NCBI GenBank assembly: GCA_019747735.1
Contig: JAIEQL010000014.1
Coordinates: 5,101-69,100, forward strand
Length of the DNA: 64,000 nt
Direction of reading: 5' to 3'
Origin: Chthoniobacterales bacterium
GTDB lineage: Bacteria > Verrucomicrobiota > Verrucomicrobiia > Chthoniobacterales > UBA6821
Position numbers and translations under genes: made by a program. The notes below the pieces were generated by a model, which was not told the origin of the DNA, ran no database searches, and saw only the letters and a program-made list of their open reading frames with translations. The stretch's first letter is position 1; the number at the start of each line of letters is the position of its first letter. This document shows, piece after piece, positions 2,966 through 53,793 of this stretch.

Positions 2966-3108
2966 AGAGGGTGTCTTGAAAAGACTAAAATTGCGCATTA
3001 CGGCGTCGCTCCAGTGCTCGCGTCCTCGAGTATGTCCCTATACACTGCGGGTCTGTGCGCTTCGCTCCTGGTACTGCATCAATTTTATTCATTTTCAAGA
3101 AACCCTCT
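2966..3108. mobile_element. MITE-like element, family A, copy A1
   Basis: 143 bp bounded by agagggtgtcttgaaaag ... cattttcaagaaaccctct (inverted termini). It differs from copies at 12764..12906 and 17531..17672 (inverted) by only 2-3 nt. Confidence 0.8.
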
Positions 3109-12718: not shown

Positions 12719-12763
12719 TTAAGGCCTTGCTTGTAAGGTGGTGAAAGAAGTTTTTTTTGGCTG

Positions 12764-12906
12764 AGAGGGTGTCTTGAAAAGACTAAAATTGCGCATTACG
12801 GCGTCGCTCCAGTGCTCGTGTCCTCGAGTATGTCCATATACACTGCGGGTCTGTGCGCTTCGCTCCTGGTACTGCATCAATTTTATTCATTTTCAAGACA
12901 CCCTCT
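12764..12906. mobile_element. MITE-like element, family A, copy A2
   Basis: Same 143-bp element as 2966..3108 with 3 mismatches by eye. Termini agagggtgtcttgaaaag / cattttcaagacaccctct. Confidence 0.8.
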
Positions 12907-12970
12907 GAAGCAAGTTCAACTTTTGACCTCGACTCTTCTTTTTAAATTTTTAGAAAATTTAAAAAGAAGA

Positions 12971-13261: not shown

Positions 13262-13276
13262 CCTTTTCAATTTCTT

Positions 13277-17530: not shown

Positions 17531-17672
17531 GAGGGTGTCTTGAAAATGAATAAAATTGATGCAGTACCAGGAGCGAAGCGCACAGACCCGCAGTGTATAG
17601 GGACATACTCGAGGACGCGAGCACTGGAGCGACGCAGTAATGCGCAATTTTAGTCTTTTCAAGACACCCTCT
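17531..17672. mobile_element. MITE-like element, family A, copy A3 (inverted orientation)
   Basis: Its reverse complement matches A1 and A2 with about 2 mismatches. It sits 32 bp upstream of the Rpn-type nuclease gene. Confidence 0.8.
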
Positions 17673-18541: not shown

Positions 18542-18631
18542 GTTTTCATTTTGTGCTGATCTTGACTCCTGTTTTTTATCTTCTATCTTCAATCTCCTAT
18601 ATTCTAATCCGTTCTGCTAAACGGATACAAA

Positions 18632-18716
18632 GCCGGTGTGGCGAAATGGCAGACGCAAGGGACTTAAAATCCCTTTTCGCGAAAGCGGAGTGTGGGTTCG
18701 AGTCCCGCCACCGGCA
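18632..18716 (+). tRNA. tRNA-Leu (anticodon TAA), long variable arm
   Basis: GCCGGTG..AGGGA-CTTAAAA-TCCCT-TTCGCGAAAGCGGA-GTGGGTTCGAGTCCCGC-CACCGGC-A. 85 nt, class II tRNA. Confidence 0.9.
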
Positions 18717-18812
18717 GGTTATTGCGTTGCAAGAAAAGTTTGAGTTGCAAGTTTGAGTTTGAGCTTAATAGGCGCTTCGCGCTTTAGGTTTTATAAAGCG
18801 TTGCGAAGAAAA

Positions 18813-18848
18813 GCCGGTGTGGCGAAATGGCAGACGCAAGGGACTTAA
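18813..18848 (+). pseudogene. Duplicated 5' half of tRNA-Leu(TAA) (truncated copy)
   Basis: gccggtgtggcgaaatggcagacgcaagggacttaa is identical to 18632..18667 and then diverges (tccaaag). No 3' half follows. Confidence 0.8.
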
Positions 18849-18915: not shown

Positions 18916-21900
18916 TTACTTTTTTTGATTCTTAGCCAGAGCTAGAGCTTCTACCTGCCTTTGAAGCTCACTTGCTTCAGCTTCTTTTTTCTGAGCATCT
19001 TGCCGATAAGATTCAGCTTCTTTGGCGTAAACTTGATGCCACCACCAGGATGTAGCTTCTTTTTGCTTTCCGTTTTTCTCTGCCTCTGCAGCATAGCTGT
19101 AACAATAAGCTGCGTTACCTAATGCCTCTGCTATTTCTTCTTGCAACGCTGCTATAGCTTCATCTCCTTGATTCAATGCCTCTGCTTTTGCTTTCAATGC
19201 TTCTGCTTGAGCTTCGCGAGCTTTCCCAGCTTGAATGAAGAGGTCTCTTGCTTTTTGATCCTTATTTTTCTCTGCCTCTGCAGCATTGCGGTAACAATCA
19301 AGCGCGCAATTGCTCTCTACTAATACCTTTGCTATTTTTTCTTGCAGTGCTGCGGTAACTTCATCTTTTCGACTCAACGCTTCTGCTTGAGCTTCGCGAG
19401 CTTTCCCAGCTTGAATGAAGAGGTCTCTTGCTTTTTGATTTCCTTCTTTCTCTGCCTCTGCTGCAAGGTTATAATAATAGGCTGCCCTTCCTAATGCTTC
19501 TGCTATTTTTTCTTGCAACGCTGCAGTAGCTTTATCTCCTCTATCTAATGCTTCTGCTTGAGCCTCGCTGGCTTTTCCTGCTCGAACATAAAATTCAACT
19601 GCTTTTTCGTTTCCGTGCGATTGTGCTTTAGCGGCCTCAATATAGGCATCTAATGCCTTATCATTTTTCCCTGCTATTGCAGCTGCGATGAGTTCATGGA
19701 GTCTTTTGGCTTTTTCATCTCCCTGAGAGGGAGCTTTCAAGAACTCTTGAAGCTCACTTGCCTCCGCTTCTTTGGCTTGAGCTTTATGCCAGTAGTATTC
19801 AGTATTTCCCTCTGCTGCATATGTGGCTGCGCTGTCACTCCATGGTCCTAATGCCTCTGCTATTTTTTCTTGGATCGCTGCGGTAACTTGATCGCCTCTT
19901 TTCAACGCCTCTATCCGAGCTTCACAAGCCTCTCTCGCTTGCATGTAGAGTTTCGCTGCTTTTTGATTTCCTTTTTGCCCTTCCTTTGCGGCATAGCTGT
20001 AACAATAAACTGCGTTACCTAATGCCTCTGCTATTTCTTCTTGCAACGCTGCTATAGCTTCATCTCCTTGATTCAATGCCTCTGCTTTTGCTTTCAATGC
20101 TTCTGCTTGAGCTTCGCGAGCTTTCCCAGCTTGAATGAAGAGGTCTCTTGCTTTTTGATCCTTATTTTTCTCTGCCTCTGCAGCATTGCGGTAACAATCA
20201 AGCGCGCAATTGCTCTCTACTAATACGTTTGCTATTTTTTCTTGTAACAATGCGATGGTAATTTGCCCTTTTTTCAAGGTCTCTGCTTGAGCTTCACGAG
20301 CTTTTCCTGCTTGGAAGTACAGTTTAGCTACTTCTTGATTCCCTTCTTTCTCTGCCTTTGCGGCATATGTATAATAAGCAGCTGCACCAGCATCATTCCT
20401 GAAGCTGTCACTCCATCCTAATGCTCCAGCTATTCCTAATCCCATGGGTTCAGTAAAAGCATGTTTAGCTTGAGCATGCATTTCAGAAGCTCTTTGGCGA
20501 TATTTTTCCACTCTTTTAGAGCGCATCCATTTTTCTCGTAATTTTGAAAATTCTTCTGGCTGTTCAACACTCTTCGTTCCCCAATCCAAAATCTTTTGGC
20601 GCTCTTTTAATTTTTGAGAACGCTCCTCATAATAAGCGAGAGCTTGTGTTAGAAAGAAGCGAGATAAAAGTGGGCTGGTCTTTTTCTCTAACTCCTTTAA
20701 CGTCCCTTCAATCTTTTCCAAAAAACCTTCTTCGCTTGCTATTGCTTCCTTGTAGGGCTGATCTTCTTCTTCTACTTTTTCATGGTATCTCTCTTGCTCT
20801 GCTAAAGAGAGTTTTTTCCAAGCATTTGAATCTCCACCATGATGCTCTTCTGCTGCTTGATGAATTTTTTGAAAATTCTCTTCCTCAATTCCTTTTTCAA
20901 TATTCTTCCAGATTTGTTCGATACGATTTAAACGCCTATTTTCTTTTTTAAAAAGTTTAAAGGCTTCTTCTTCTCCTTGTAAGACTCCCTGGAGTTGAGC
21001 CTGGTGGCCATGCAAAACAGCTTGGTCTTTAATATAATTTTTTGGATCTTGAAAAATTGCCAATTGCTTTTCAAGTTGTTCTTTACTTGCTTGAACACGT
21101 ACCTCCCAAGCCTTTTCTGCTCCTGGAATTTTTTCTCGAGCAGCACGGAGAGCTTCTTCATAGACTGTTTTTTTATACTCTTGAGCAGCGAGGACTGTTG
21201 TCAGGTTTTCTTCGGAGAAGGCAAATGCATTTTTTGCTTTCTCATCTAATAGTTGCTTTAAGGAGTAACGATAAGGTTCGAGCTGTCTATCGGCTTTTTG
21301 CTCAGGGCTTAAATTCTTCTCTTCTTCAAATCGCTTCCAACGCGTGAGCACAGCACTATCATTTTCTGCTAATTGCTCTAATACTTTTTGAAGGCTTTTT
21401 TCTGGTAGATCCAAGCGAGAGAGAGAATAGCTCTGCTTAGCTTTTTCTCTCCATCGTTTTTCTATCTTTTCTATTTCTTCTTGTTGGCTCTTAAAGTCTG
21501 ATTCAGAAAGTCCTTTCTTTTCTTTAAGAGCCTCTAGGGAGTTTTCCACTTGATTTCGTGCTTCTAGACGTTTCATGAAATCATTCCAATGTGTTTTCAT
21601 GAGCGTAGGATCGACGTAGCTCTTCATTACTTCTTTTTGCTGCTCTTGGAGTGAGAGGTCATCAGCTACTTCTAAAATTTTGAAGATCATCTCTTTTGCT
21701 GAAATGCCAAAGGCTTTTCCTTCTTGTAGAGCTAGCACTTGCCATTCTTCGGTAAGGTTTTTTTCTTCGTAAAAAGTTTTTTGAAATTGTTGCTGAAGGC
21801 TTTCTAAAGTTACTGGCTGGCTCTCTATTGCTCTTTTACTTTTCTGAGTGCCTTGGCTCAGAAAGCTTAAAAAACTTCTTGTTGTAACATCAGTAGGAGT

Positions 21901-27448: not shown

Positions 27449-28354
27449 ATGAACTCCCATCTTTTAAAAAAATTTTCTATTCCTAACAAAATTACTCTTT
27501 CTCAAGATGCACACGGCTTTTGGAGAGCAGCTGTCACAACGCCTCTGAGTACTGCTGAAATTTACTTACAGGGAGCCCATGTGACGGCTTTTCAAAAAAA
27601 GGGAGAAGAGCCGCTTCTTTTTATGAGTGCTTCTCATCGGATGGACCGCGCTCATATGTTGCATGGCGGCATTCCACTTTGTTTCCCCTGGTTTGGTAAT
27701 CGTGAGGCAGAGCTACTCTCTCATGGTTTTGCTCGCATCAACTTGTGGGATTTAGTGGAAACTAAAGAGCTTTCTGAAAACGAAGTGTCGCTCCGTTTTC
27801 AACTTCCTCATGCTGTGCTAATAGCTGCTGGTTGGCCTCCTCTCACTGCGGAGCTCACGGTTATTGTTGGTGGAGCATTGACGCTCGAACTCAGGGTCCA
27901 TAACACAACCGAGGAACATTTTCTCTACGAAGAGTGCTTTCATTCTTATTTTTTGGTAAGCGACATTAGCAAAGCCACTATCCATGGGCTTTGCGGACTG
28001 ACTTATCTCGACAAAGTAGAAGACCTTGTGGCAAAGGTGGAGTCTTTTGAAGCGCTTCCCATCAAAGGAGAAATCAATCGTATTTATCTCAATTCAACAG
28101 GGTCCCTTGAGATTCATGATGCCGGCTTCCAGCGGATCATTCGTATTGAGAAAACTAACTCTCGTTCCACGGTGGTTTGGAATCCATGGAAGGAAAAAGC
28201 AAGAACCATTCCTGATTTTGAGGCCAATGATTATCAAAAGATGCTTTGTGTTGAGTCAGGAAACATCAGGGAGTTTGGATGCAAACTGGCTCCTGGAGAG
28301 GCAGCGACGATGCAAGCTAGGCTGAGCACTTTGAGGCTTATAACATCTTATTAG
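27449..28354 (+). CDS. D-hexose-6-phosphate mutarotase (aldose 1-epimerase family, YeaD-like)
   Basis: 301 aa. HGGIPLCFPWFG, VVWNPW and CVESGN blocks typical of glucose-6-phosphate 1-epimerases. Confidence 0.82.
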   Translation: MNSHLLKKFSIPNKITLSQDAHGFWRAAVTTPLSTAEIYLQGAHVTAFQKKGEEPLLFMSASHRMDRAHMLHGGIPLCFPWFGNREAELLSHGFARINLWDLVETKELSENEVSLRFQLPHAVLIAAGWPPLTAELTVIVGGALTLELRVHNTTEEHFLYEECFHSYFLVSDISKATIHGLCGLTYLDKVEDLVAKVESFEALPIKGEINRIYLNSTGSLEIHDAGFQRIIRIEKTNSRSTVVWNPWKEKARTIPDFEANDYQKMLCVESGNIREFGCKLAPGEAATMQARLSTLRLITSY

Positions 28355-28442
28355 AGCATTTTAAATAAAACTACAGCCATTTTAGAGCATCATTAAAAAT
28401 TTTTGTAGTCGATGCAGTGCCAGGAGCTGAGGCTCTCAGATA
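28351..28442. mobile_element. MITE-like element, family B, truncated copy B1
   Basis: The first ~92 nt are identical to B2 (35825..) up to caggagctgaggc, then unrelated sequence. The mutarotase stop codon TAG (28352-28354) lies inside the element terminus ttagagcat. Confidence 0.75.
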
Positions 28443-28518
28443 GAGAAGAAAAGAGTGATTTCACAGCTTGCCAGCGGAGGCTGCTGACGTTAGCTTTTTC
28501 TTCTTTTTTATCTATCTT

Positions 28519-29514
28519 ATGAAGAACGCTTCTGCTCCCATTTCTGCCTTTATCAATCATCATTTCCGCCATTTCAATGCTGCTACATTGAAAGATGCCG
28601 CTCATGGCTATCAGGCACATCTAACTCAAGGAGGAAAAATGTTTCTCACCTTGGCAGGGGCCATGAGTACAGCGGAGTTGGGGCTCTCGCTGGCAGAGAT
28701 GATTCGGCAGGGTAAAGTCCATGCGATTTGTTGCACCGGGGCTAATTTGGAAGAGGATATTTTTAACCTAGTAGCCCACGATTATTACGAGCGCGTTCCG
28801 CATTATCGCGATCTTACCCCAGCTGATGAGCAACGACTTCTTGAGCGCCACATGAATCGCGTCACCGATACCTGCATTCCCGAGATGGAAGCAATGCGTC
28901 GCATTGAGAGCGCTGTGCTGGAAGAGTGGGTGAAGGCGGATCAAGCAGGGGAGCGCTATTTTCCTCATGAGTTTATGTACAAAATTCTGCTCAGTGAAAA
29001 ATTAAAAGAGAGTTATCAAATTGATCCGGCCAACAGTTGGATGCTTGCTGCCGCCCAGCAGAATCTTCCACTCTTTGTTCCTGGTTGGGAAGATGCCACT
29101 CTGGGAAATATGTATGCGGGGCATTGCATGAGTGGTGATGTGAAAAATGTCCATACTGTGCGCACCGGCATTGAATATATGATGGCGCTGGCACAATGGT
29201 ATACACACCAAGCAAAACCAATCGGAGAAAATGGATCTATCGGATTTTTCCAAATCGGCGGGGGCATCGCTGGTGACTTTCCTATTTGTGTGGTGCCGAT
29301 GCTCCATCAAGATCTTCAAAGAACGGAAGTTCCGCTTTGGGGTTACTTCTGCCAGATTAGCGACTCCACCACGAGCTACGGAAGCTATTCGGGCGCGGTT
29401 CCTAATGAAAAAATTACTTGGGGAAAATTGGGCGTTAGCACCCCAAAATACATCATTGAATCAGATGCCTCGATTGTGGCGCCACTTATCTTTGCCATGA
29501 TTCTTGGATGGTAG
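28519..29514 (+). CDS. Deoxyhypusine synthase-like protein (homospermidine synthase-like family)
   Basis: LTLAGAMSTAELG, CTGANLEEDIFNLV and ISDSTTSYGSYSGA..EKITWGK blocks. The track start 28468 is a TTG. ATG at 28519 (MKNASAP) gives 331 aa. Confidence 0.85.
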   Translation: MKNASAPISAFINHHFRHFNAATLKDAAHGYQAHLTQGGKMFLTLAGAMSTAELGLSLAEMIRQGKVHAICCTGANLEEDIFNLVAHDYYERVPHYRDLTPADEQRLLERHMNRVTDTCIPEMEAMRRIESAVLEEWVKADQAGERYFPHEFMYKILLSEKLKESYQIDPANSWMLAAAQQNLPLFVPGWEDATLGNMYAGHCMSGDVKNVHTVRTGIEYMMALAQWYTHQAKPIGENGSIGFFQIGGGIAGDFPICVVPMLHQDLQRTEVPLWGYFCQISDSTTSYGSYSGAVPNEKITWGKLGVSTPKYIIESDASIVAPLIFAMILGW

Positions 29515-29659
29515 GAAGAGGGGCTCAAATTCTACTGATGCAGCGCAGAACTGTGTCGCGTCGGTGCTCGCACCCTCGAGTATTTCCATATACACTCAGT
29601 TGCTGCGCGCCGCCGCTCTTTGTTCTTCATCTGCCTTAGCGAATTTTAACACCCTCTTC
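29515..29659. mobile_element. MITE-like element, diverged family-A relative (A4)
   Basis: Termini gaagaggggctcaaattc / gaattttaacaccctcttc are imperfect inverted repeats. The core gtgctcgcaccctcgagtatttccatatacact aligns with the family A core. It starts 1 nt after the DHS-like stop codon. Confidence 0.65.
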
Positions 29660-29702: not shown

Positions 29703-29769
29703 TGACAACCGACAACTGACAACCTTTCCTTCAATCGTGCTCCTACAGCCTACAGCCTACAGCCTACAG
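29703..29769 (+). repeat. Two heptanucleotide tandem arrays in the murC-murB leader: (t/c)gacaac x3 and cctacag x4
   Basis: tgacaac cgacaac tgacaac at 29703-29723, and cctacag x4 (perfect) at 29742-29769. The second array is inside the GTG-started ORF but upstream of the alternative TTG start at 29776. Confidence 0.8.
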
Positions 29770-32046
29770 CCTCTCTTGCTCGACAACGGCCCGCTTACCA
29801 TTCATCTGATCGGTGTTGCTGGTTCAGGGATGAGTGGGCTAGCTTCTTTGCTCTTAGCCTTGGGGCATCGTGTGACTGGCTCTGATCGTGTGACCAGTGA
29901 AGAGGTAGAGCGGTTGTGTAAATTGGGATTAAAGTTTTCAATGTCTCATTCTGCAAGTGATGCCGCAGAAGCAGATCTTGTAGTTTATTCTTCGGCGATT
30001 CATGCAGGGAATGCGACTTTTGATGAAGCAAAGCGTCTTGAAAAAAAAATGGCACGACGTGCGGAGGTCCTTGCAGCTTTGATGATGAGGAAAAAAGGGA
30101 TTCTTGTCTGTGGGATGCATGGAAAAACCACAACTTCTTCGCTCTTAGCACACGTTCTCAATGAAGGCGGCCTCCATCCTTCTCACTATGTGGGAGCGGA
30201 GATTCCGATCTTGGGGACTAATGCTCGTTGGAACACTCAAGGAGACTATTTTGTAGCAGAAGGGGATGAGAGTGATGGGACTTTAGTAAACTACCTTCCT
30301 GAGCAGGCGATTGTTCTGAACATTGAGCCCGAGCATCTCGATTTTTATAAAAACTTAGAAGCTATTGATGCTGTCTATTCGCGCTTGGTGACTCAAACGA
30401 AAGGTCCCGTTTTTTATTGGCTTGACGATCCAGGTGCAGCTAGGGTTTGTGCTGATCATCCTAAAGCTATCCCTGTTGGAAAAAGCGAAGGAGCTCTTTA
30501 TCGCTATGAAAGTTTAAAGCAGGAGCGTTACGCTTCTAGCTTTGAGGTCATTGCAAAAAATAAAGTTATCGGCTCTGTGAAGTTGAATATTCCCGGTGTT
30601 CACAATGTACATAATGCCCTTCTTGTTATTGCACTTGCTTTGGAGCTTGGAGTCCCTTTTGAATTTATTCAAGTAGCTCTTAAAAAATTTTGCGGAGCTA
30701 AGCGACGCTTTGAGCTCAAGTACGAGGGCGAAGAATTTTTGCTTTTCGATGATTATGGGCATCATCCCACAGAGATTGCAGCAACCTTGGCAACCGCTCG
30801 TACTTTATTGGAAGAAAGAGGCTTAGCAGGACGTCTCGTTGTGCTTTTCCAGCCACATCGTTACTCGCGCACAGCGGCTTTTTGTCAGGAGTTTGGGAAG
30901 GTGTTGTTAAATGCAGATCTTGTATTTGTAACCGATATTTATCCTGCAAGCGAAGAGCCATTGCCAGGAGTTACCGGAGCCTCCATTGTCCAAGCAGCAG
31001 AATCACAGGGACACTTAGCCATTTTTTATTACCCCTTGGTAGAAGGGCTTAGAAAGCGGGTTGCGCCTCTATTGAAAGCAGGGGATATCATCCTCTCACT
31101 GGGAGCAGGAAATATTCACGAAGAAGGAACGCGTTTGGTGACTGATTTCAAAAAACGAGAGGAATTACTCTCCGTGATGGGTCCAGGCTCTATTGCCCTC
31201 TACGAGCCGCTGTCCCGCCATACGACATTACGTGTTGGTGGTCTTGCCCAATTTTGGGTGGAGCCAGAAACCGAAGAAGGATTTGCAAGGTTAGTGAAAT
31301 ATTGTACTGAGGAAAAAATACCACTCATGGTCATCGGACGTGGTTCGAACTTGCTCGTGCGCGATGGTGGCTTCTCTGGAGTTGTTGTCCATTTAGCTCG
31401 TGGGTGCTTTGCCAACTGTAGTGTGAAGGGAACGCATATTTATGCTGGTGTTGGGGTAAAATTAAAACAACTTAGTGGCGTTGCCCGTCAGGCCGAATTG
31501 GGAGGGTTTGAATGGATGGAAGGGATTCCAGGAAACGTTGGAGGAAGCCTTCGCATGAATGCAGGAGCTATGGGGCAGGAGACGATGGCCCAAGTAACCA
31601 TGATTCGTTATGTGACAACACAAGGTGAAATTAAGGAATGGCTTCCTCCTTTTGCCGATATTCATTACCGTGATGTTTCTTTTTTTAAAAACAACTATGC
31701 TCTCGCAGCTACCTTTCAAGGGTATCCCGAAAAGCTTAACAAAATAGAAGCAGCTTTAGAACAGTCGTGGAAGCATCGCCGTGAGACGCAGCCTATTGCC
31801 GCGAGTGCAGGGTGTATTTTTAAAAATCCTAGGAAAATTTCTGCAGGACGCCTCATTGAAGAGCTAGGGCTCAAAAACCATACTGTTGGCAAAGCTCGTG
31901 TTTCTGAGATTCATGGAAATTTTATTGTCAATGATGGAGGGGCAACGGCTCGAGAAGTGCTTCAGGTAATAGAGGATGTCAAGCGTGTCGCCCTGCAAGA
32001 ACGCGGTATTGTTTTAGAAACAGAAGTGCAGATTGTGGGAGAGTAA
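29737..32046 (+). CDS. murC: Fused UDP-N-acetylmuramate--L-alanine ligase (MurC) / UDP-N-acetylenolpyruvoylglucosamine reductase (MurB)
   Basis: 769 aa. MurC part IHLIGVAGSGMSGLA, Mur-ligase P-loop GMHGKTTTSS, DDYGHHPTEI. MurB part from about 31160: LSRHTTLRVGG, GRGSNLLV, AGCIFKNP. The start is uncertain (GTG 29737 or TTG 29776). Confidence 0.9.
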   Translation: MLLQPTAYSLQPLLLDNGPLTIHLIGVAGSGMSGLASLLLALGHRVTGSDRVTSEEVERLCKLGLKFSMSHSASDAAEADLVVYSSAIHAGNATFDEAKRLEKKMARRAEVLAALMMRKKGILVCGMHGKTTTSSLLAHVLNEGGLHPSHYVGAEIPILGTNARWNTQGDYFVAEGDESDGTLVNYLPEQAIVLNIEPEHLDFYKNLEAIDAVYSRLVTQTKGPVFYWLDDPGAARVCADHPKAIPVGKSEGALYRYESLKQERYASSFEVIAKNKVIGSVKLNIPGVHNVHNALLVIALALELGVPFEFIQVALKKFCGAKRRFELKYEGEEFLLFDDYGHHPTEIAATLATARTLLEERGLAGRLVVLFQPHRYSRTAAFCQEFGKVLLNADLVFVTDIYPASEEPLPGVTGASIVQAAESQGHLAIFYYPLVEGLRKRVAPLLKAGDIILSLGAGNIHEEGTRLVTDFKKREELLSVMGPGSIALYEPLSRHTTLRVGGLAQFWVEPETEEGFARLVKYCTEEKIPLMVIGRGSNLLVRDGGFSGVVVHLARGCFANCSVKGTHIYAGVGVKLKQLSGVARQAELGGFEWMEGIPGNVGGSLRMNAGAMGQETMAQVTMIRYVTTQGEIKEWLPPFADIHYRDVSFFKNNYALAATFQGYPEKLNKIEAALEQSWKHRRETQPIAASAGCIFKNPRKISAGRLIEELGLKNHTVGKARVSEIHGNFIVNDGGATAREVLQVIEDVKRVALQERGIVLETEVQIVGE

Positions 32047-32109: not shown

Positions 32110-32205
32110 CAAAGGGGTCAGTTCCGTTATTTGGATAATTTGGTGCCAGTCTGGATATAGCTGAACTGGCACCAAATTATCCAAATAACGGAACTGACCC
32201 CTTTG
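32110..32205. repeat. 96-bp perfect palindromic element (41-bp arms, 14-nt loop) between convergent murC-murB and the L,D-transpeptidase gene
   Basis: caaaggggtcagttccgttatttggataatttggtgccagt (32110-32150) and its exact reverse complement (32165-32205). It is followed by the partial direct repeat ctgacccctttg. Confidence 0.85.
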
Positions 32206-32223: not shown

Positions 32224-32778
32224 TTATTGGGATATCCCTTGGACTTTTTTAACAACCTCCACCTCGGCGCCTTTTCCCACTTTTTCATAGAGCGCAATGA
32301 CGTCAGTAGAGCTCATGCGAATGCATCCAAAGCTTGCTGGTTTTCCAAGGGAGTGCTCTTGAGTGGTCCCATGAATGTAGATGTAACGGGCAAAAGCATT
32401 TTTATTTTGAGGCTCTTTTCCATGCAGCCATAAAAGACGGGTTACTATGGGGTCACGGCCAGGAGTATTTGGTAGGAGAATCTCACCTGTTGGCTTGCGG
32501 TCTTTGAAAGCCATTCCAAGGGGCATTCCTGTTCCTATTTTTTTAGCGATGTAAAGATGACCCAGTGGAGTTTTGTAACTACCCATCTCATCTCCCACGC
32601 CATACTTAGAAGTAGAGATAGGATAAACAGCGATCTGGTTTCCATCTTCAAAGAAGATCATTTTTTGATCTGCAATACTCACCAGCAATTTGTGATGCAT
32701 ATCGGGAGCGCAAGCAACGAGGAGGAAGCAGAACGCAGTAAAGAGTGAAGAGTAAAGAGTGAAGGGTGATTTAGTCAT
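32224..32778 (-). CDS. L,D-transpeptidase (YkuD domain) lipoprotein
   Basis: Catalytic motif YIHGTTQEHSLGKPASFGCIRM. ATG at 32778 gives MTKSPFTLYSSLFTAFCFLLVACAP (lipobox LVAC). The track GTG start 32808 lies in a heptamer repeat tract. Confidence 0.88.
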   Translation of the reverse strand: MTKSPFTLYSSLFTAFCFLLVACAPDMHHKLLVSIADQKMIFFEDGNQIAVYPISTSKYGVGDEMGSYKTPLGHLYIAKKIGTGMPLGMAFKDRKPTGEILLPNTPGRDPIVTRLLWLHGKEPQNKNAFARYIYIHGTTQEHSLGKPASFGCIRMSSTDVIALYEKVGKGAEVEVVKKVQGISQ

Positions 32779-32907
32779 GGCGTTGTGATGACAGTTGTCG
32801 GTTGTCACTTAAAAAATCTCGCCGTTGGCCAAAAAATGAAAATAAAACGCAAGCAACGCAGTGTAAACTGATAGCTTAAACTCAAATTTTCACTACGAAG
32901 CATCTCT

Positions 32908-34814: not shown

Positions 34815-35690
34815 TTAACTTCTCACCACTTGGGGTTGGCCCAAAATGCCATAGGGTTTGAATACCAAGACAAGAAGCAAGAGTGAGTAGGCAACAAGAT
34901 CTCGATACGTCGAAGGAAGTAAGGAGACGGTAATGATTTCAGTGGCGCCGAGAAGGTAGGCTCCCAGGAGGGCTCCACGGATATTACCAATCCCACCAAT
35001 CACTGCTGCTACAAAGGCTTTCCAGCCGATGAGCATCCCCATTGAAGAAGAAATGACCGGATATGAGAGAGCGTATAGAAGCCCAGCAGCCCCTCCTAAG
35101 GCGGCTCCGAGAGCAAAGGTCATAGAAATAATTCTATTAGCAGGAATGCCTAGAAGAGAAACCATTAAGCGATCTGAGGAGAGAGCACGCATGGCAATGC
35201 CAAAGCGAGTAAAGCGAATAATAAAATCAAGAAGGATCATCAGCAAAAGAGAGATTCCAATCACAACAAGCTGCAATGAGGAAATAGTAATCCCATGAAA
35301 AGAAGTGATGCTGTTTTTTATCAAAGTTGGCATGTGGCGAGGGTAGGGACTTAAGGCTAGTGTGATGTTTTCAATAATAAGTCCACAACCAAGAGCTGTG
35401 ATCATTGCCGAAACACGAGGAGCATGACGAATAGGGCGGTAAGCACATAATTCGAGCAACACTCCTAACAAACTAGTTCCAAGCATGGTTAGTAACAGGG
35501 CCAGCCAAAAAGGGACGCGAATCATTTTTTCTAATAAAAAACAAAAAAAAGCCCCCACCATAAAAAGATCGCCATGGGCAAAATTGATCATCGTAAGCAC
35601 TCCATAGACCAAGCTGTATCCTAGTGCGATGAGGGCATAGATGGAGCCTAGTTGAAGAGCGTTGATGGCTTGTTGAGCAAAGTAATCCAT
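34815..35690 (-). CDS. livH: Branched-chain amino acid ABC transporter permease LivH-like
   Basis: MDYFAQQAINALQLGSIYALIALGYSLVYG is the canonical LivH N-terminus (ATG 35690). The track start 35711 is an upstream TTG. Confidence 0.88.
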   Translation of the reverse strand: MDYFAQQAINALQLGSIYALIALGYSLVYGVLTMINFAHGDLFMVGAFFCFLLEKMIRVPFWLALLLTMLGTSLLGVLLELCAYRPIRHAPRVSAMITALGCGLIIENITLALSPYPRHMPTLIKNSITSFHGITISSLQLVVIGISLLLMILLDFIIRFTRFGIAMRALSSDRLMVSLLGIPANRIISMTFALGAALGGAAGLLYALSYPVISSSMGMLIGWKAFVAAVIGGIGNIRGALLGAYLLGATEIITVSLLPSTYRDLVAYSLLLLVLVFKPYGILGQPQVVRS

Positions 35691-35824
35691 GGAGAAGAGT
35701 GTTAGTTGCAAGCGTTCCCGCTGTTGGGCAGAGCGATAAAAAGAACCAGTAAAAATTTCTAAAATTTATTTGAAAAAGGTATAAAGTTACAGGCTTCCTT
35801 CATGTATCAGCTGCGTAGACTTAC

Positions 35825-36000
35825 TTAGAGCATTTTAAATAAAACTACAGCCATTTTAGAGCATCATTAAAAATTTTTGTAGTCGATGCAGTGCCAGGAG
35901 CTGAGGCGCACAGCGAGGGAGTGTATAGCCAATACTCGATGGAGCGAGCACCGAAGCGACGACGCAATGAGCGGCTACAGAATTTTTTAATATGCTCTAA
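35825..36000. mobile_element. MITE-like element, family B, copy B2
   Basis: 176 bp. Termini ttagagcattttaaataaaactacagcc / ggctacagaattttttaatatgctctaa (imperfect TIR). It differs from B3 (53618..53793) at 2 positions by eye. Confidence 0.8.
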
Positions 36001-36233: not shown

Positions 36234-39200
36234 ATGAAAAAGCTTCCTCTTCTTTTGCTCCTGAGCGCCTGTGCGCTCGCTCCCCTGCGCGTAAGCGCGA
36301 TGATAGAAGGAGATGAAAAAGAGGGGTATAAAGAGTCGAGTGATTTAAAAAAAACCCTCCAAAAAAATACGAACGAAACATTGTTAGAGGATCAGAAAGC
36401 AGCAGCAGAAAGAGTTAACAATCCTGCGGCTAACAACAATACAGAGATTAAGTTCGAAGCGTTTGTTAAGAAGGAAGAGATCATCCAGGATTCGACTATG
36501 AAATCGTCTCCCAATGCTGATCCTCAACCCAACTCGTCACTAGTTGACGCTGATGAAGAAAGTGAAAACGAAAAGGAAAATCTTTGGGATCTAGACATAC
36601 TAGAACAAAGAACCCAAGAGGCTCGAGAGATCGTTGCTGATTTAGGAGGAAAAGGACCAGCCATTTCAGAACAAGCACTCCGTGACCTTTATCACACTTG
36701 GTCACAACGCTACCAGCGTTACCAAAAAGCACTTCAAGATCTGCAACAGCAAAGTGAAATTGGTATTGCAGGTGAGCAAATTGAAGATCGGCTTGGAGAG
36801 TTAGTGAAGGTTTCTCAAAAGGCTCAAGAGGCTCTTGAAACAAGCCTGCGAAGTATTACTCAGGAGCTGACACGTGCTGCTGGCACTAAAAAATGGGACC
36901 CTCTTATTGATGAGAAAAAAACAACTCAAAAAGAAAGAACTCAGGAGCAAGAGAAAGAACTTTTAGAACAAGAAACAACAACAGCTCTTAAGCAATTTGA
37001 GAAACTTCTGAATGATGGTAGTTCTTTGCTTTATCGTGATAGACCTCAGGTTTCCTTAACTTCTTACCAAGAAAAGTACCAATCCTTTTTTAACGAGTTA
37101 AGAACAGTAGCAGAAAAACAAAAAAAAACGTGTAAGGATCAAGAGCAAAGAGAGGAAACCCCTTCCGTTCTTCATGCTTGGGAAAAAGTGCTCGAGATGA
37201 TTCCTTCACTAGAAAAAAATCATCGGGAATGGAAAGAGACTTTTTCTGCTAAAGAAAAAGCCATTGTAGATGCCAATCTCATGATTGCTTGGAGCTCCTT
37301 TCAAGAAGGAATGGCTTACGCCAGAGGAGAAAAAGAAGCGGCTCTTTGGGAGGAGTCAGCAGAGATTTCGAAACATCGAGCTGCTGCTTTACGAGCAGGA
37401 GATGAAGAGCAAGCAGAGCGATTAAAGAAACCAGCTTATTCCTTGGGCGGTTGGGAAAAATGGCCCGGAGCTGCTTATGCTTACGGAAAAGCTCGTGAGG
37501 CCAGAGCCTGGGGAGATGAGCTTGGGAACCAAGAAGCTGCTCTTTGGGAGGAATCAGCTGCGATTTTGAAAGAGTACGCAGCTGCGTTAGGAAGAGGAGA
37601 TGAGACCCAAGCAGAACGATTAGGCAAACAAGCTTATACCTTGGGCGGTTGGGAAAATTGGCCCGGAGCTGCTTATGCTTACGGAAAAGCTCGTGAGGCC
37701 AGAGCCCAGGGAGATGAGCTTGGAAACAAAGAAGCTGCTCTTTGGGAGGAATCAGCTGCGATTTGGAAAGAACAATCAGCTGCGTTAGCAAAAGGAGATG
37801 AGCCCCAAGCAGAACGATTAAAGAAACAAGCTTATGCCTTGGGCGGTTACGCAGACTGGCCCGGAGCTGCTTATGCTTACGGAAAAGCTCGTGAGGCCAG
37901 AGCTCGAGGAGATGAACTTGGGAATAAAGAAGCCGCTCTTTGGGAGGAGTCAGCAGAGATTTCGAAACATCGAGCTGCTGCTTTACGAGCAGGAGATGAA
38001 GAGCAAGCAGAGAGATTAAAGAAACAAGCTTATGCCTTGGGCGGTTGGAAAAATTGTCCCGGAGCTGCTTATGCTTACGGAAAAGCTCGTGAGGCCAGAG
38101 CTCGAGGAGATGAACTTGGGAATAAAGAAGCCGCTCTTTGGGAGGAGTCAGCTGCGATTTGGAAAGAACAAGCTGCTGCTTTACGAGAAGGAGATGAAAA
38201 GCAAGCAGAGCTATTAAGTAAACAAGCTAATGCTTTAAGTAATAGTACTTCTACTGTGAGTCCGCTTTATTCCTATGAAAAAGCTCGTGAGGCCAGAGCT
38301 CAAGGAGATGAGCTTGGGAACAAAGAAGCTACTCTTTGGGAAGATATAGCAGAGATTTATAAAAAACAAGCTGCTGCCGTAAAAGGAAAAGATGAAAAGC
38401 AAGCAGAGCTATTAAGTAAACAAGCTAATGCTTTAAGTAATAGTACTTCTACTGTGAGTCCGCTTTATTCCTATGAAAAAGCTCGTGAGGCTAGGGCCAA
38501 AGAAGATGAGCTTGGAGAAAAAGAAGCTGCTCTTTGGGAGAAATCAGCAGAGATTTGGAGAGAACGATCAGCTGCGTTAGGAAGAGGAGATGAAGAGCAA
38601 GCAGTCAAATTAAGAAAACAAGCTTATGCCTTAGGTGGTTGGGACAGTTCTAAAGGAGCTGCTTATGCTTATGGAAAAGCTCGTGAGGCTAGAGCCCGGA
38701 AAGATGAGCTTGGAAAAAAAGAAGCTGCTCTTTGGGAAGAGTCAGCTGCGATTTATAAAGAGCAAGCATCTGCGTTAGCAAAAGGAGATGAAAAGCAAGC
38801 AGGGCGATTAAGTAAACAAGCTTATGCTTTAAGTAATAGTACTTCTACTGTGAGTCCGCTTTATTGCTATGGAAAAGCTCGTGAGGCCAAAGCCCAAGGA
38901 GATGAGCTTGGAGAAAAAGAAGCTGCTCTTTGGGAGGAGGCAGCAGAGATTTCGAAAGAGTACGCAGCTGCGTTAGGAAGAGAAGATGGTACTCCCCGAG
39001 CAGAGCAACTAGAGAAACAAACTCTTGCCTTGGGCGGTGGGGCAGATTCGCCTGGAGCCGCTTATGCTTACGGAAAAGCTCGTGAGGCCAGGGCCCGAGG
39101 AGATGAGCTTGGGGAAAAAGAAGCCGCTCTTTGGGAGGAGTCAGCTGCGATTTTGAAAGAGCACGCAGCTGCGTTAGCAAGAGGAGATGGCTCCGAAGCA

Positions 39201-42200
39201 GAGCAATTAAAGAAACAAGCTTATGCCTTGGGCGGTTGTGGAGGATGGCCCGGAGCTGCTTATGCTCACGGAAAAGCTCGTGAGGCGAGAGCCAAAGGAG
39301 ATGAGTTTGGAGAGAAAGAAGCTGCTGCTCTTTGGGAGGAGTTAGCTGCGATTTATAAAGAACAAGCAGCTGTTTTACGAGCAGGAGATGAAAAGCAAGC
39401 AGGGCGATTAGAGAAACAAGCTCTTGCCTTGGGCGGTTGGGGGAAATCGCCCGGAGCTGCTTATGCTTACAGAAAAGCTCGCGAGGCCAGAGCCCAAGGA
39501 GATGAGCTTGGAGAAAAAGAAGCTGCTCTTTGGGAGAAGTCAGCAGAGATTTGGCAAGATCAAGCAGCTGCCGTAAAAGGAAAAGATGAAAAGCAAGCAG
39601 GGCGATTAGAGAAACAAGCTCTTGCCTTGGGCGGTTGGGGAAATTGGCCTGGAGCTGCTTATGCTTACAGAAAAGCTCGTGAGGCCAGGGCCCGGGGAGA
39701 TGAGCTTGGAGACAAAGAAGCTGCTCTTTGGGAGGAGTCAGCAGAGATTTGGAAAGAGTACGCAGCTGCGTTAGGAAGAGGAGATGAAAATCAAGCAGAG
39801 CGGTTAAAGAAACAAGCTTATGCCTTGGGCTGCGGTTGGGCAGATTTGCCCGGAGCCGCTTATGCTTACGGAAAAGCTCGTGAGGCCAGGGCCCGGGGAG
39901 ATGAGCTTGGGGAAAAAGAAGCCGCTCTTTGGGAGGAGTCAGCTGCGATTTTGAAAGAGCACGCAGCTGCGTTAGGAAGAGGAGATGAAAATCAAGCAGA
40001 GCGGTTAAAGAAACAAGCTTATGCCTTGGGCTACGGTTGGGCAGATTTGCTCGGAGCCGCTTATGCTTACGGAAAAGCTCGTGAGGCGAGAGCCAAAGGA
40101 GATGAGTTTGGAGAGAAAGAAGCTGCTGCTCTTTGGGAGGAGGCAGCAGAGATTTGGAAAGAGTACGCAGCTGCGTTAGGAAGAGGAGATGAAAATCAAG
40201 CAGAGCGATTAAAGAAACAAGCTTATGTCTTGGGCGGCGGTTGGGCAAATTCGCCTGGAGCCGCTTATGCTTACGGAAACGCTCGTGAGGCCAGGGCCCG
40301 GAAAGATGAGCTTGGGGACAAAGAAGCTGCTCTTTGGGAGGAGTCAGCAGAGATTTGGAAAGAGCAAGCATCTGTGTTAGCAAAAGGAGATGAAAATCAA
40401 GCAGTGCGATTAAAGAAACAAGCTCTGAAAATAGAAGAGCAAATATATCTGTTGAAACAACATCAGTTAGAGAAAGATGTTGCTATTTTTAAGGCTGCTA
40501 GTGCTGCTAAGGCTTATTACGATGCGAATGAAGAGATTGGAAAGGCTCTTTATTCTACAGAGCCTCATAAACGTGACAGCCTTGAGGAGCATCTTAAAGT
40601 GGCACTTGATGCGCAAAACATTGAAACAAACTCTCAAGGAGACTCAGCTTCAGAACTTAATCTTAAAGAGGAGCTGTATCGTCTTCAAAATGAGGCTGCT
40701 AAAAAAACTAGTAGTGCTATGACTGCTTACCGTCAAGCGTTAGAAACTGGTGAGGAAGGTGACTTATTGGAAGCTTTCAAAAAAGCTGTTGCAACATATG
40801 ATAGTTGGGAAGAGGTTAAAAACTATTGCAATGAACTTAATCATTTAGGAAGTCTTTGGAAAGACTCGCTGGAAGTCGCAAAATGTGAGCTAGCTGCCTG
40901 GACCAGGGCTCTTAACCAGTTTGACCCTCAGCACTCAGAATCACTTAGATTGCCTCCAGAAAGAGATTTGCAAGAATTTCCATTCTCTACTCTTTGTAAA
41001 ACATTTAATACATCTGAATCAGGAATACAAAAAGAGATAAGAATATTAAATACTATGTTCAAATATCCGCTGATTCGAGCAGAAGAAAAATTAAATCGAC
41101 CCATTACTTATATGGTTGCTAATCAGCTGCGGTTAATACAAGGAAAAGAAAACTTAGAAAAATTTTGCAATAATGAAGAAGTTAAAAAATTAGGTAAGCC
41201 AATCAGAAAATCAGAGGACAGCTATTTGTTTGAATTTAATAATGAATTAATCGGATCTCAATTTCCTCCAGATTCACTAGAACGTTTATTAATTGAGCAT
41301 CAGGTGGATTATGTTCCTAATTATATGGTAAGTTTAGAGATGGATTCTGGATCTAACTCTCAAAAAAAAATAAATTTTGGAAATATATTTAAGAATTTTG
41401 TTGATAATCTTTCTGTTGATTCGAAAGAGAAGGCCAGAAGTGCAAATAATACAAAAAAGGAACTTATGGCAAGTGAGTCAAAAGAAAAAAAGCTTCCTCT
41501 ATTAGAGAAAGGGGAGGAAGAGCCTTGGAATCTAAAACATATTCATGCTCCTGAGGCTTGGGAGATTTTAAAAAAAGCAGAAGAAGAAGGGCGTTTAAAT
41601 AATGATGAGATCACTATTGCTTTTATTGATTCGGGAGTTGACATCAGTAAATTCGAGAGGCCAGGGCAAGAAGGTGGAAAAATAATTTATCGCTGTAACT
41701 ATACTGATAAAAAATTAAATGATGATGTATCTGATGGAGCAGGGCATGGTACTGCTTGTATTGAAATAGCTAGCTCTGTTCTTGGACATCAAAAAAATCT
41801 TTCAAAAAAAGTTAATTTTATAGCCTGCAAAATCACTAAGGATCGTTCTTTTGATACTGACAGTTTTTTACAAGCTCTTCAGTGGGCTTGTGAAAAAGGA
41901 GCAAAGATTATTAATATTAGCGCTGGCTGGCATAGGGATAGTACCTTAAATAAGAAAGAACGACATGATAATTTAAAAGAAAAACTTAATAATCTCCCAG
42001 ATAGTCAATATGATGATAAAGACATTGAAGAGGCAATAGAAGAGAATGATAAGAAATGGAATAAAGATGATAAAGAGTTGGATAAAGTATTATTTAATTC
42101 TCTTAATAAAAAAATTATCATTGTTAATTCGGCAGGGAATTTAGGCTTAGATATTAGTCAAGCTAACAATCAACATTACCCTTCTCATTATGAATACAAA

Positions 42201-42818
42201 TATGAAAATATAATAGTTGTTGGAGCTACTACAAAAGAGGGAAAACTATTACGCAGAAGCAATTATGGAAGAAAAGTTCATTTAGGAGCTCCTGGAGCAG
42301 AAGTTTTTTCTAGGCTCCTAGAAAGGAATGTATCTGGAACATCGTATGCAACACCTCATGTTTCTGGCAGCATAGGAGTAATGGAGCAGTTAAAAGAACT
42401 TAATCCTAAAACCAGTCTTGTGAACTCAACAGATCCTATTGAAGATGATCAAGAAAGGTACATTTTTGGTGGAGCCCTTAATCTTGAAGATGCTTTACTA
42501 GGAAAAACTACCAAATGGCCAGAACGTTATAAGAAAAAAACTCATAAACAAATAGAAGACACCTTAAAGAATAATTGTACTGAAACGGACGACACTTATC
42601 AAAACATGATGCAGATAGCTACGGTGGGTCAGCAGTTTAACAATGGGTGCCATGCCCATTCTGATAAAAATAATGTTTTTACTTCAGTACCAGCAGTAGC
42701 TTCCACTGCTGCTCAAAATTTTCAAGAAGTCGCTTCCGCTGTTGCTCAAGATTTCAAAGCTTTATTTGTTGATGCATTTTCTTCTCGTGCTCCTATAGAA
42801 AAAGGAGGAACAGACTAA
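36234..42818 (+). CDS. Giant secreted repeat protein with C-terminal subtilase (peptidase S8) module; paralog 2 of 3
   Basis: 2194 aa. Signal peptide MKKLPLLLLLSACALAPLRVSAM. The head is nearly identical to gene 1. About 15 units of 66-67 aa are followed by a helical region, propeptide-like segment (..VDYVPNYMV) and S8 triad. Confidence 0.9.
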   Translation: MKKLPLLLLLSACALAPLRVSAMIEGDEKEGYKESSDLKKTLQKNTNETLLEDQKAAAERVNNPAANNNTEIKFEAFVKKEEIIQDSTMKSSPNADPQPNSSLVDADEESENEKENLWDLDILEQRTQEAREIVADLGGKGPAISEQALRDLYHTWSQRYQRYQKALQDLQQQSEIGIAGEQIEDRLGELVKVSQKAQEALETSLRSITQELTRAAGTKKWDPLIDEKKTTQKERTQEQEKELLEQETTTALKQFEKLLNDGSSLLYRDRPQVSLTSYQEKYQSFFNELRTVAEKQKKTCKDQEQREETPSVLHAWEKVLEMIPSLEKNHREWKETFSAKEKAIVDANLMIAWSSFQEGMAYARGEKEAALWEESAEISKHRAAALRAGDEEQAERLKKPAYSLGGWEKWPGAAYAYGKAREARAWGDELGNQEAALWEESAAILKEYAAALGRGDETQAERLGKQAYTLGGWENWPGAAYAYGKAREARAQGDELGNKEAALWEESAAIWKEQSAALAKGDEPQAERLKKQAYALGGYADWPGAAYAYGKAREARARGDELGNKEAALWEESAEISKHRAAALRAGDEEQAERLKKQAYALGGWKNCPGAAYAYGKAREARARGDELGNKEAALWEESAAIWKEQAAALREGDEKQAELLSKQANALSNSTSTVSPLYSYEKAREARAQGDELGNKEATLWEDIAEIYKKQAAAVKGKDEKQAELLSKQANALSNSTSTVSPLYSYEKAREARAKEDELGEKEAALWEKSAEIWRERSAALGRGDEEQAVKLRKQAYALGGWDSSKGAAYAYGKAREARARKDELGKKEAALWEESAAIYKEQASALAKGDEKQAGRLSKQAYALSNSTSTVSPLYCYGKAREAKAQGDELGEKEAALWEEAAEISKEYAAALGREDGTPRAEQLEKQTLALGGGADSPGAAYAYGKAREARARGDELGEKEAALWEESAAILKEHAAALARGDGSEAEQLKKQAYALGGCGGWPGAAYAHGKAREARAKGDEFGEKEAAALWEELAAIYKEQAAVLRAGDEKQAGRLEKQALALGGWGKSPGAAYAYRKAREARAQGDELGEKEAALWEKSAEIWQDQAAAVKGKDEKQAGRLEKQALALGGWGNWPGAAYAYRKAREARARGDELGDKEAALWEESAEIWKEYAAALGRGDENQAERLKKQAYALGCGWADLPGAAYAYGKAREARARGDELGEKEAALWEESAAILKEHAAALGRGDENQAERLKKQAYALGYGWADLLGAAYAYGKAREARAKGDEFGEKEAAALWEEAAEIWKEYAAALGRGDENQAERLKKQAYVLGGGWANSPGAAYAYGNAREARARKDELGDKEAALWEESAEIWKEQASVLAKGDENQAVRLKKQALKIEEQIYLLKQHQLEKDVAIFKAASAAKAYYDANEEIGKALYSTEPHKRDSLEEHLKVALDAQNIETNSQGDSASELNLKEELYRLQNEAAKKTSSAMTAYRQALETGEEGDLLEAFKKAVATYDSWEEVKNYCNELNHLGSLWKDSLEVAKCELAAWTRALNQFDPQHSESLRLPPERDLQEFPFSTLCKTFNTSESGIQKEIRILNTMFKYPLIRAEEKLNRPITYMVANQLRLIQGKENLEKFCNNEEVKKLGKPIRKSEDSYLFEFNNELIGSQFPPDSLERLLIEHQVDYVPNYMVSLEMDSGSNSQKKINFGNIFKNFVDNLSVDSKEKARSANNTKKELMASESKEKKLPLLEKGEEEPWNLKHIHAPEAWEILKKAEEEGRLNNDEITIAFIDSGVDISKFERPGQEGGKIIYRCNYTDKKLNDDVSDGAGHGTACIEIASSVLGHQKNLSKKVNFIACKITKDRSFDTDSFLQALQWACEKGAKIINISAGWHRDSTLNKKERHDNLKEKLNNLPDSQYDDKDIEEAIEENDKKWNKDDKELDKVLFNSLNKKIIIVNSAGNLGLDISQANNQHYPSHYEYKYENIIVVGATTKEGKLLRRSNYGRKVHLGAPGAEVFSRLLERNVSGTSYATPHVSGSIGVMEQLKELNPKTSLVNSTDPIEDDQERYIFGGALNLEDALLGKTTKWPERYKKKTHKQIEDTLKNNCTETDDTYQNMMQIATVGQQFNNGCHAHSDKNNVFTSVPAVASTAAQNFQEVASAVAQDFKALFVDAFSSRAPIEKGGTD
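37325..40430 (+). repeat. In-frame tandem array of about 15 units of 198-201 bp (66-67 aa) inside giant gene 2
   Basis: The landmark cccggagctgcttatgct recurs at 37464, 37662, 37860, 38058, ..., 39249, 39450, 39648 and 39849. Unit: PGAAYAYGKAREARA.GDELG.KEAALWEESA.I.KE.AAAL..GDE.QAE.LKKQAYALGGW..W. Confidence 0.92.
41523..42500 (+). other. Subtilase S8 catalytic domain of giant gene 2 (with a large Lys/Asp/Asn-rich insertion)
   Basis: Asp ITIAFIDSGVDIS, His DGAGHGTACIEIASS, Asn VNSAGNLG and Ser VSGTSYATPHVSGSIGVM. There is an insert between the His and Asn blocks (RDSTLNKKERHDNLKEKLNN...DKELDKV). Confidence 0.85.
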
Positions 42819-53617: not shown

Positions 53618-53793
53618 TTAAAGCATTTTAAATAAAACTACAGCTATTTTAGAGCATCATTAAAAATTTTTGTAGTCGATGCAGTGCCAGGAGCTGAGGC
53701 GCACAGCGAGGGAGTGTATAGCCAATACTCGATGGAGCGAGCACCGAAGCGACGACGCAATGAGCGGCTACAGAATTTTTTAATATGCTCTAA
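53618..53793. mobile_element. MITE-like element, family B, copy B3
   Basis: 176 bp with 2 mismatches to B2 by eye. It lies in the leader of the transporter gene at 53856. Confidence 0.8.

Follow-up and report, generated by a model that had tools for sequence, protein, structure and literature searches.

The window, that is the whole 64-kb stretch of DNA analysed here, holds six full palindromic MITE copies, one truncated copy and one fragment. Family A occurs three times, family B twice plus the truncated copy, and a further relative, C, once. An HMM search found exactly 7 core-bearing copies in the 64 kb, and 7/7 are intergenic. The elements measure 141–145 bp, or 176 bp in the case of composite family B, and their terminal motifs number 7 and 9 in the window, where 1.2 and 1.5 would be expected (0/100 shuffles as high). 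All copies of A, B and the third relative that a preliminary description of this DNA had listed were found in place by direct reading, repeat finding and HMM. Moreover, a covariance model, R1, recovers 6/6 full copies at 58–77 bits. The features, with their surroundings and R1 scores, are as follows.

2967..3107 (-), family A copy 1: 141 bp, GAGGG..CCCTC; TCA, as read on the + strand, duplicated as 3-bp flanks (2964-2966 and 3108-3110); ORFs 1929-2852 (-) and 3279-4373 (+) diverge on either side; R1 58.6 bits at the central domain, 2994-3078
12765..12905 (-), family A copy 2: TGA on both sides (12762-12764 and 12906-12908); 47 nt past the stop of ORF 6398-12718 and upstream of two - strand tRNA genes; R1 59.3 bits at 12792-12876
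17531..17671 (+), family A copy 3: imperfect duplication, with TAT on one side and TAA on the other; neighbouring ORFs 15979-17241 (+) and 17705-18541 (+); R1 58.7 bits at 17560-17644
28351..28442 (+), family B copy 3: truncated in the core after ..CCAGGAGCTGAGGC, hairpin lost; left terminus contains the stop codon TAG of ORF 27449-28354
29515..29659 (-), relative C: 145 bp, GAAGAGGGTG..CCCCTCTTC; directly after the TAG stop of ORF 28468-29514 and antisense to that ORF; R1 76.5 bits at 29544-29629, the best in the window
35825..35855 (+), solo left end of another subfamily: terminal repeat and P2; outer part of the composite family B
35856..36000 (+), family B copy 1, complete inner element: TTA-GAGCAT..ATGCTC-TAA; between divergent ORFs 34815-35711 (-) and 36234-42818 (+); R1 72.5 bits at 35887-35971
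53618..53793 (+), family B copy 2: 31-nt solo end and complete element 53649-53793; between divergent ORFs; R1 72.5 bits at 53680-53764
59704..59734 (-), family A 5′ fragment: terminal repeat and start of P2, breaking off after ..AAAATTGAT

Copies within a family are nearly identical. The family A element proper (141 bp, GAGGG..CCCTC) differs between copies at 3–4 positions and the two 176-bp copies of family B (35825-36000 and 53618-53793) at 2. Family B had been described as a single 176-bp unit. The 176-bp copies are real; however, the family is a composite, in which a 31-nt solo left end of another subfamily abuts a complete 145-nt element. By hand count the solo left end at 35825..35855 is about 74% identical to the left end of the L002-type element, and the inner element of copy 1 spans 139 bp between its TA dinucleotides.

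Other repeats were also noticed in the window. Two giant ORFs (6398-12718 and 36234-42818; 2106 and 2194 aa) are made of 198–231-nt tandem repeats, and their 5′ regions (6452-7075 and 36234-36863) share 87–96% identity, with family B copy 1 just upstream of the second. Within the 1690-aa ORF 18916-23988 (-) there are repeats of 180 nt, and a segment of 290 nt occurs twice (19055-19344 and 19955-20244; 97% identity). About five units of the heptamer CCTACAG run from 29742 to 29772, where ORF 29737-32046 begins a short way downstream of element C, and a related stretch lies at 13234-13264. An exact repeat of the first 39 nt of the tRNA gene 18632-18716 lies 181 nt further downstream (18629-18667 and 18810-18848) and may be the scar of an integration or duplication.

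Core identity is 76% between A and B, 74% between A and C and 72% between B and C, with the ends merely 31–54% identical. Therefore, the earlier estimate of roughly three quarters between A and B was right, and it extends over the families (72–76%). The alternation of conserved and variable blocks noted at the same time was also borne out. Entropy is low (0–0.3 bits) in GCGCNCAG, GA-GTGTAT, ATACTC-GA and CGAGCAC, and rises to 1.0–1.5 bits in the loop, in the x and y blocks and in the terminal stem, P1. No other part varies as much as P1 (1.5 bits), yet the complementarity of this stem is kept: across 66 copies 83.8% of cells are paired, and compensatory changes occur at 9/9 pairs. Terminal inverted repeats are present (GAGGGTGTCTTGAAAA/TTTTCAAGACACCCTC and TTAGAGCAT../..ATGCTCTAA). 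The termini of the families had been called different, which is true of their identity; however, they are not unrelated, since the inverted repeats that end A, B and C are homologous, evolve fast and grade into one another, with the form GAGnnTGTnnnAAAA. More than 10 end variants exist within one genome, and a consensus, GAGnnTGT..AAAA, is recognisable among the variants.

Each element of ~141 bp folds into one long irregular hairpin, consisting of stems P1, P2 and P3 and an 85-nt central domain. The 5′ half of this domain reads CAAGG(A/C)(G/A) - P4 - GCGC(A/G)CAG - P6 - GA - GUGUAU or GCGUAU - loop, and the 3′ half after the loop reads AUACUC or AUACGU - GA - P6′ - CGAGCAC - P4′ - (C/U)(A/G)ACGC. 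As RNA, the window copies have predicted folds of -55 to -57 kcal/mol (z = -4.9 and -6.8), with family A copy 3 at -56.8 kcal/mol (z = -6.75). RNAalifold on 66 copies predicted 37 pairs, 26 of them with compensatory changes. In the full hairpin model of 58 pairs 76.8% of cells are paired and both sides have changed in 499 cells, compared with 173 in shuffles; its covariation score is 0.342 against 0.05–0.09 with slid partners, and 0/500 shuffles score as high. A second alignment, of 55 diverse central domains with metagenome and Verrucomicrobiota types mixed, is 86.2% paired with a covariation score of 0.461 against 0.06–0.09 in slid controls. Here, P3, P4 and P6 vary freely, one pair being GC in 28 domains, CG in 16, UA in 6 and AU in 3. 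All helices of the hairpin show compensatory changes. Compensatory change on the covariance structure, which the preliminary description had named as the check to make, is therefore present far above slid and shuffled controls. Moreover, several non-Watson-Crick elements are conserved, namely two tandem G.A/A.G motifs, one U.U pair and two G.U pairs.

The central hairpin was tested in metagenome sequences by demanding a non-T at one side of the U.U pair of P7 and leaving its partner free. The pair had switched to C-G in 100/108 metagenome copies (p = 2e-21), and therefore the central hairpin is a real paired structure. The pair next to this C-G is G.U in 80, A-U in 9, G-C in 13 and A.C in 0, and the constraint at this position is strand-specific. 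The strand carrying GTGTATA, on which the G.A and G.U pairs occur, is the more stable of the two in 60/65 elements (mean -64.3 versus -56.6 kcal/mol). The excess of G.U over A.C is confined to a few positions (89 versus 50 overall; 8 versus 11 columns). In four orthologous pairs of copies, evolution in place was not consistently slower than that of the flanks, and one pair, L013/L064, has diverged as fast as its flanks with pairs broken.

We also compared the fold with described RNAs. Searches of the window, the Verrucomicrobiota loci and the metagenome loci against Rfam at gathering/E-value thresholds found only tRNA and rRNA, and the best chance matches were miRNA models at 12–20 bits. A self-cleaving ribozyme and a box C/D-like k-turn were considered and rejected, as the CUGA/GAUG tandem G.A motif is without the 3-nt bulge and has no Rfam match.

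The same central domain is found well outside the window. A genome scan with the core pattern, one genome per species, listed at least 78 loci, and among the matches listed nearly all come from Chthoniobacterales/Verrucomicrobiota MAGs. The Chthoniobacterales MAGs carry hundreds of core copies in total and dozens per MAG, and by HMM the window and the listed genome loci together hold at least 108 copies. Among the listed loci there is also a short contig whose MAG carries the label Planctomycetota. Two Kangiella loci (L056:3463-3542 and L076:5707-5782) represent a single orthologous intergenic site with outer arms of its own; between the two species a U.G has become G-C via changes on both sides, and an A.C mismatch has become A-U. 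A metagenome scan with core variants that differ at one base of the central hairpin gave 103 loci from marine, freshwater and sediment samples. These elements have outer arms unrelated to those of the window around the same central domain, and total 140–147 nt. Plasmid and viral contig collections gave no match to the elements. A cyanobacterial origin with Nostoc-type MITEs or SDRs was a first guess that we dropped, because the window genes match genes of Chthoniobacterales MAGs (74–78% nt and 72–75% aa identity), which places the window in a Chthoniobacterales-like bacterium; the exact GlgP protein of the window was found only in two metagenome runs.

The preliminary description had named, as the outcome that would refute it, a shared core that is simply common descent decaying neutrally. 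Under such a history the families would be young, their ends would have diverged faster by chance or recombination and the core would be unconstrained. The near-identity of copies within a family and the chimeras described below, which show module recombination, are what it would predict. However, it fails against the covariation and block-wise conservation seen across Verrucomicrobiota, Kangiella and metagenomes. Different phyla share the core, as do many metagenomes whose elements have unrelated arms, compensatory changes far exceed slid and shuffled controls, and invariant blocks adjoin saturated ones; we regard plain descent as very improbable. Taken together, block-wise conservation across taxa, strongly covarying helices and compensatory switches in the central hairpin support, as had been proposed, a constraint on the core at the nucleic-acid level, whether as RNA or as single-stranded DNA.

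The elements have the hallmarks of MITEs: small size without transposase coding, terminal inverted repeats, target duplication together with polymorphism, and many dispersed copies. Comparison of a filled site in L041 with the empty site in L003 reveals a clean TA duplication, and a family-A-type copy nested in L071 has a clean TTA duplication; several further filled/empty pairs were not clean. Presence or absence of an element is polymorphic between closely related MAGs. Most families duplicate TA at the target site and family A duplicates TNA, and these two lengths fit different transposases serving different ends. The earlier suggestion that one core is carried and mobilised by different ends thus gains from the contrast between the 3-bp TNA of family A and the 2-bp TA of the others. 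Moreover, the chimera L060 is joined inside the core, and an orthologous site in L022/L043 has a swapped core; therefore copies recombine through the conserved centre.

We searched for an autonomous partner with matching ends, using terminal 16-18-mers on ~1.2 Mb of DNA around copies. None was found in the window, the listed genome loci (at least 78) or the 103 metagenome loci, where the 16-18-mers returned just further copies and fragments. An all-against-all megablast of the loci for long repeated segments gave orthologous regions only.

We propose, with a probability of roughly 60%, that the elements are non-autonomous palindromic MITEs of one very large superfamily, related to ERIC/IRU and RPE-like in behaviour. 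Insertion generates the TA duplication, or TNA in family A. The elements would be moved in trans by DDE transposases, presumably IS630/Tc1-like for TA and IS5/Harbinger-like for TNA. The central domain would be kept since only elements with a folded single-stranded form propagate or are tolerated. Several observations sit awkwardly with this scheme. No autonomous partner turned up in the DNA around the copies, the better-folding strand is usually antisense to the neighbouring genes, the G.U excess is confined to a few positions, the four orthologous pairs did not change consistently more slowly than their flanks, and the match to ERIC (19.8 bits) is little above that of an unrelated hairpin (17.5 bits). 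Moreover, a DDE transposase normally requires conserved ends, whereas in these elements variability peaks at the ends (1.5 bits) and conservation in the interior, the opposite of what is expected.

That inversion would be explained if some other enzyme recognised the folded single strand of the central domain, as ssDNA or RNA, and cut at the hairpin base, so that P1 needed only to pair. The core at 0–0.3 bits beside ends at 1.5 bits that are still 83.8% paired, the >10 end variants in one genome, a length that stays at 140–147 nt even with unrelated outer arms, non-Watson-Crick pairs kept on one strand only and the failure to find an autonomous partner in ~1.2 Mb around copies are all consistent with it. 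However, TA and TNA duplications are a hallmark of DDE transposition, the end variants form a continuum with the consensus GAGnnTGT..AAAA, recombination in the core (L060; L022/L043) can shuffle ends without a special enzyme, and the partner search spanned only ~1.2 Mb around copies. We therefore consider such an enzyme quite unlikely and retain transposition in trans by DDE enzymes as the preferred mechanism.

In related genomes the elements are also found inside genes. Approximately 20 of the 90 MAG-locus copies lie in frame inside long ORFs, in both orientations, the host genes encoding Ffh, RibD, a TPP enzyme, NadE, Nnr, PEP carboxylase, Rho/CoaE and HolA. The net insert of ~144 nt corresponds to 48 codons, and such copies survive in frame inside housekeeping genes. 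The GlgP of the window is an empty allele, compared with which the GlgP of L014 has a 47-residue insertion exactly at the element; among GlgP orthologues there have been three independent insertions at three positions, two of them read in sense and one in antisense. A peptide word search gave 2 matches and an exhaustive phmmer search was needed. With the 53-aa ORF encoded by the element, phmmer found the peptide embedded in 20-odd unrelated protein clusters, including prephenate dehydrogenase (TyrA-like), dehydroquinase (AroD), RsmE, an AddB-type nuclease and a metallo-beta-lactamase. The recurrent peptides are ..SVYxILDDxSTGAT.. in the sense frame and ..NSTxDANCGVAPVLASSSIxYTLSRCAPEAPGTSS.. 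in the antisense frame, and the elements contain 1.4 open frames each compared with 0.75 in shuffles.

These figures raise the question of whether the core is kept as a peptide module, selected when an element sits in a gene. Two recurrent frames giving recognisable peptides in many unrelated proteins, and the surplus of open frames, are what such selection would leave. However, the majority of copies, including every one in the window, are intergenic, both strands are used and differences in loop length shift the frame of the 5′ half between families. Moreover, the core variation is without 3-nt periodicity, and therefore the encoded peptide is a by-product and not the constraint. We find a peptide module barely credible. 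The preliminary description had likewise dismissed a conserved peptide, a verdict that holds with the caveat that the elements are translated in frame within genes of relatives.

Intergenic copies are not placed at random with respect to genes. Between co-directional genes the GTGTATA strand is antisense in 27/33 cases at the MAG loci (p = 3e-4), and in an independent metagenome sample in 37/42 (p = 4e-7). The element starts exactly at the upstream stop codon in 17 antisense and 0 sense copies, where the TA and the element's first base together restore a TAG or TAA. A single sense-oriented copy was seen at a stop codon, the truncated family B copy 3 of the window. The intergenic copies that survive thus occupy the TA of the upstream stop codon and prefer one orientation, and convergent contexts outnumber divergent ones (11 versus 3). 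Consensus sites for a promoter (sigma-70-like) or terminator function are absent from the elements. By strand the window copies divide 4:3, and a replication-strand bias is inseparable from gene-strand composition. The closest precedent for the orientation bias is the orientation-dependent effect of RNase E on mRNAs upstream of ERIC (PMC3184786, PMC10969869). Under the DDE scheme the bias may result from co-transcription with the upstream gene and different folding of the two strands, and co-transcription with strand-dependent folding has been reported for ERIC in Yersinia. Against this, the better-folding strand is usually antisense to the neighbouring genes.

These positions could also be read as those of a host-functional structured RNA, for example a stability or processing module at mRNA 3′ ends after stops. 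Here, the mobile hairpin would only spread the central domain, and copies would be retained by host selection. Such a role would account for the RNA-like covariation of the helices with conserved tandem G.A and G.U pairs, the strong placement at gene 3′ ends and stop codons with its orientation bias and the 11 versus 3 convergent and divergent contexts. A sense copy in a 23S rRNA gene resembles an intervening sequence, the Kangiella locus is conserved in two species with compensatory change, and there is the precedent of ERIC acting on mRNA decay (PMC3184786). However, copies run to dozens or hundreds in a genome, close relatives differ in which ones they have, and many lie in coding regions in both orientations. 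Moreover, the L013/L064 pair is as diverged as its flanks with pairs broken, the strand usually in the mRNA is the worse-folding one, and neither an Rfam family nor a promoter- or terminator-like signal was found. We therefore consider host function an unlikely reason for the retention of the copies.

The 23S rRNA copy, from a metagenome, lies at L136:529-770 (-) in sense orientation, at about model position 583, like a helix-25 intervening sequence.

Lastly, we compared the elements with known repeat families, of which ERIC/IRU (~127 bp) is suggested by sequence to be the closest described relative. ERIC has terminal inverted repeats and flanking TA, lies mostly downstream of genes and is co-transcribed (PMC3184786, PMC10969869), and it affects mRNA decay (PMC3184786). 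Like the elements here, it is an imperfect palindrome, similar in size, whose centre holds a conserved inverted repeat; terminal inverted repeats, TA flanks and the location at gene 3′ ends are also found for the elements here. The sequence of the ERIC core was confirmed in all 5426 E. coli genomes, and E. coli ERIC copies share with R1, in the same order, AAGGCG, CGCAG, GA-hairpin-GA, CGAG and CAACGCA. However, ERIC has an extra CCCCAG/CUGGGG helix, is without GCGCNCAG..CGAGCAC as such, has been reported only from Enterobacteriaceae and Vibrionaceae and is not known to enter housekeeping genes often in frame. R1 gave 19.8, 15.3 and 12.1 bits on three copies of ERIC from E. coli. The link between R1 and ERIC is only suggestive because ERIC scores 15–20 bits, nhmmer against ERIC gave no match and an unrelated hairpin of the window reaches 17.5 bits. 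This control hairpin, an A+T-rich palindrome at 32124-32191, scores ~17 bits with R1 on both strands and sits between the convergent ORFs 29737-32046 (+) and 32224-32808 (-). We know of no transposase for ERIC and, to our knowledge, both the mobilising enzyme of ERIC-type repeats and the reason for their conserved centre are unknown more than 30 years after their description.

The in-frame copies recall RPE, palindromic repeats of ~105–150 bp that lie in frame in many unrelated metabolic genes and add a recurring peptide; there are several families, with no known transposase (PMC10969869, PMC3184786). Palindromic in-frame insertions in unrelated genes are found here in related genomes, outside the window, with Ffh, RibD, NadE, Nnr, Ppc, HolA, TyrA-like, AroD, RsmE, AddB-like and GlgP (three sites) as RPE-like hosts. 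The hosts here differ, however, in being free-living and of another phylum, and most copies are intergenic at stop codons. The resemblance claimed is functional only. Correia terminal inverted repeats begin TA-TAGTG... The Correia/NEMIS repeats of Neisseria have a TA duplication and hairpin transcripts cut by RNase III, with no known transposase (PMC10969869). Compared by description, they share TA duplication, terminal inverted repeats and a hairpin with our elements; unlike them, they carry promoters and an IHF site, a sigma-70-like promoter being absent here. The CORE-SINEs of vertebrates have different heads and tails around one conserved central core, which is an analogy only, as these are unrelated eukaryotic retrotransposons moving through RNA. 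REP/BIME (RAYT-mobilised, with a 20–40 bp palindrome, a GTAG/CGTC head and no target duplication) were rejected, the elements being ~141 bp with a TA/TNA duplication; the GTAG 3′ of stem P2 has the opposite polarity to the REP head. We class the elements as new palindromic MITEs of the ERIC/RPE kind, with a structured core that crosses phyla.

A bolder proposal, which we regard as possible though doubtful, is that the 85-nt central domain represents an undescribed pan-bacterial structured module, whose folded single strand would be read by end-independent mobilisation or by RNA processing at gene 3′ ends. ERIC, the Verrucomicrobiota elements and those of marine, freshwater and sediment samples would then form one ancient superfamily that also remodels housekeeping proteins through in-frame insertions of 48 codons. 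A superfamily with hundreds of diverged members, covariation and non-Watson-Crick motifs offers a defined structure for mutagenesis, RNA-seq and pull-downs, and the orientation bias together with stop-codon placement suggests a testable link between element strand and mRNA fate. Moreover, protein-coding palindromes in frame have so far been treated mainly as a feature of Rickettsia, and here they occur in essential genes of free-living Verrucomicrobiota. The insertions in Ffh, Ppc, NadE and GlgP point to a general route by which protein insertions evolve, and to a source of annotation errors.

Some loci hold more than one repeat. Four element copies form a head-to-tail tandem array with a 147-nt period at L086:1500-2000, and tandem pairs lie 138 nt apart in L139:1270-1450 and 121 nt apart in L153:1519-1680. 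A second repeat of ~80 nt, rich in G+C (..TGCGGCGTGGCAGCCGCTGGATCGACTGCCGAAGGCAGCCCCAAAGGGGCGAGCCTCGCGGGAGCGAGCGAGTTGCA...), occurs inside MITE cores of different subfamilies at fixed points (L026, L046, L061, L065, L062, L069 and L172) and also outside MITEs (L006, L025, L057, twice in L073, and L075). It belongs to no Rfam family (best 13.9 bits, AaHKsRNA22) and looks like an even smaller mobile element.
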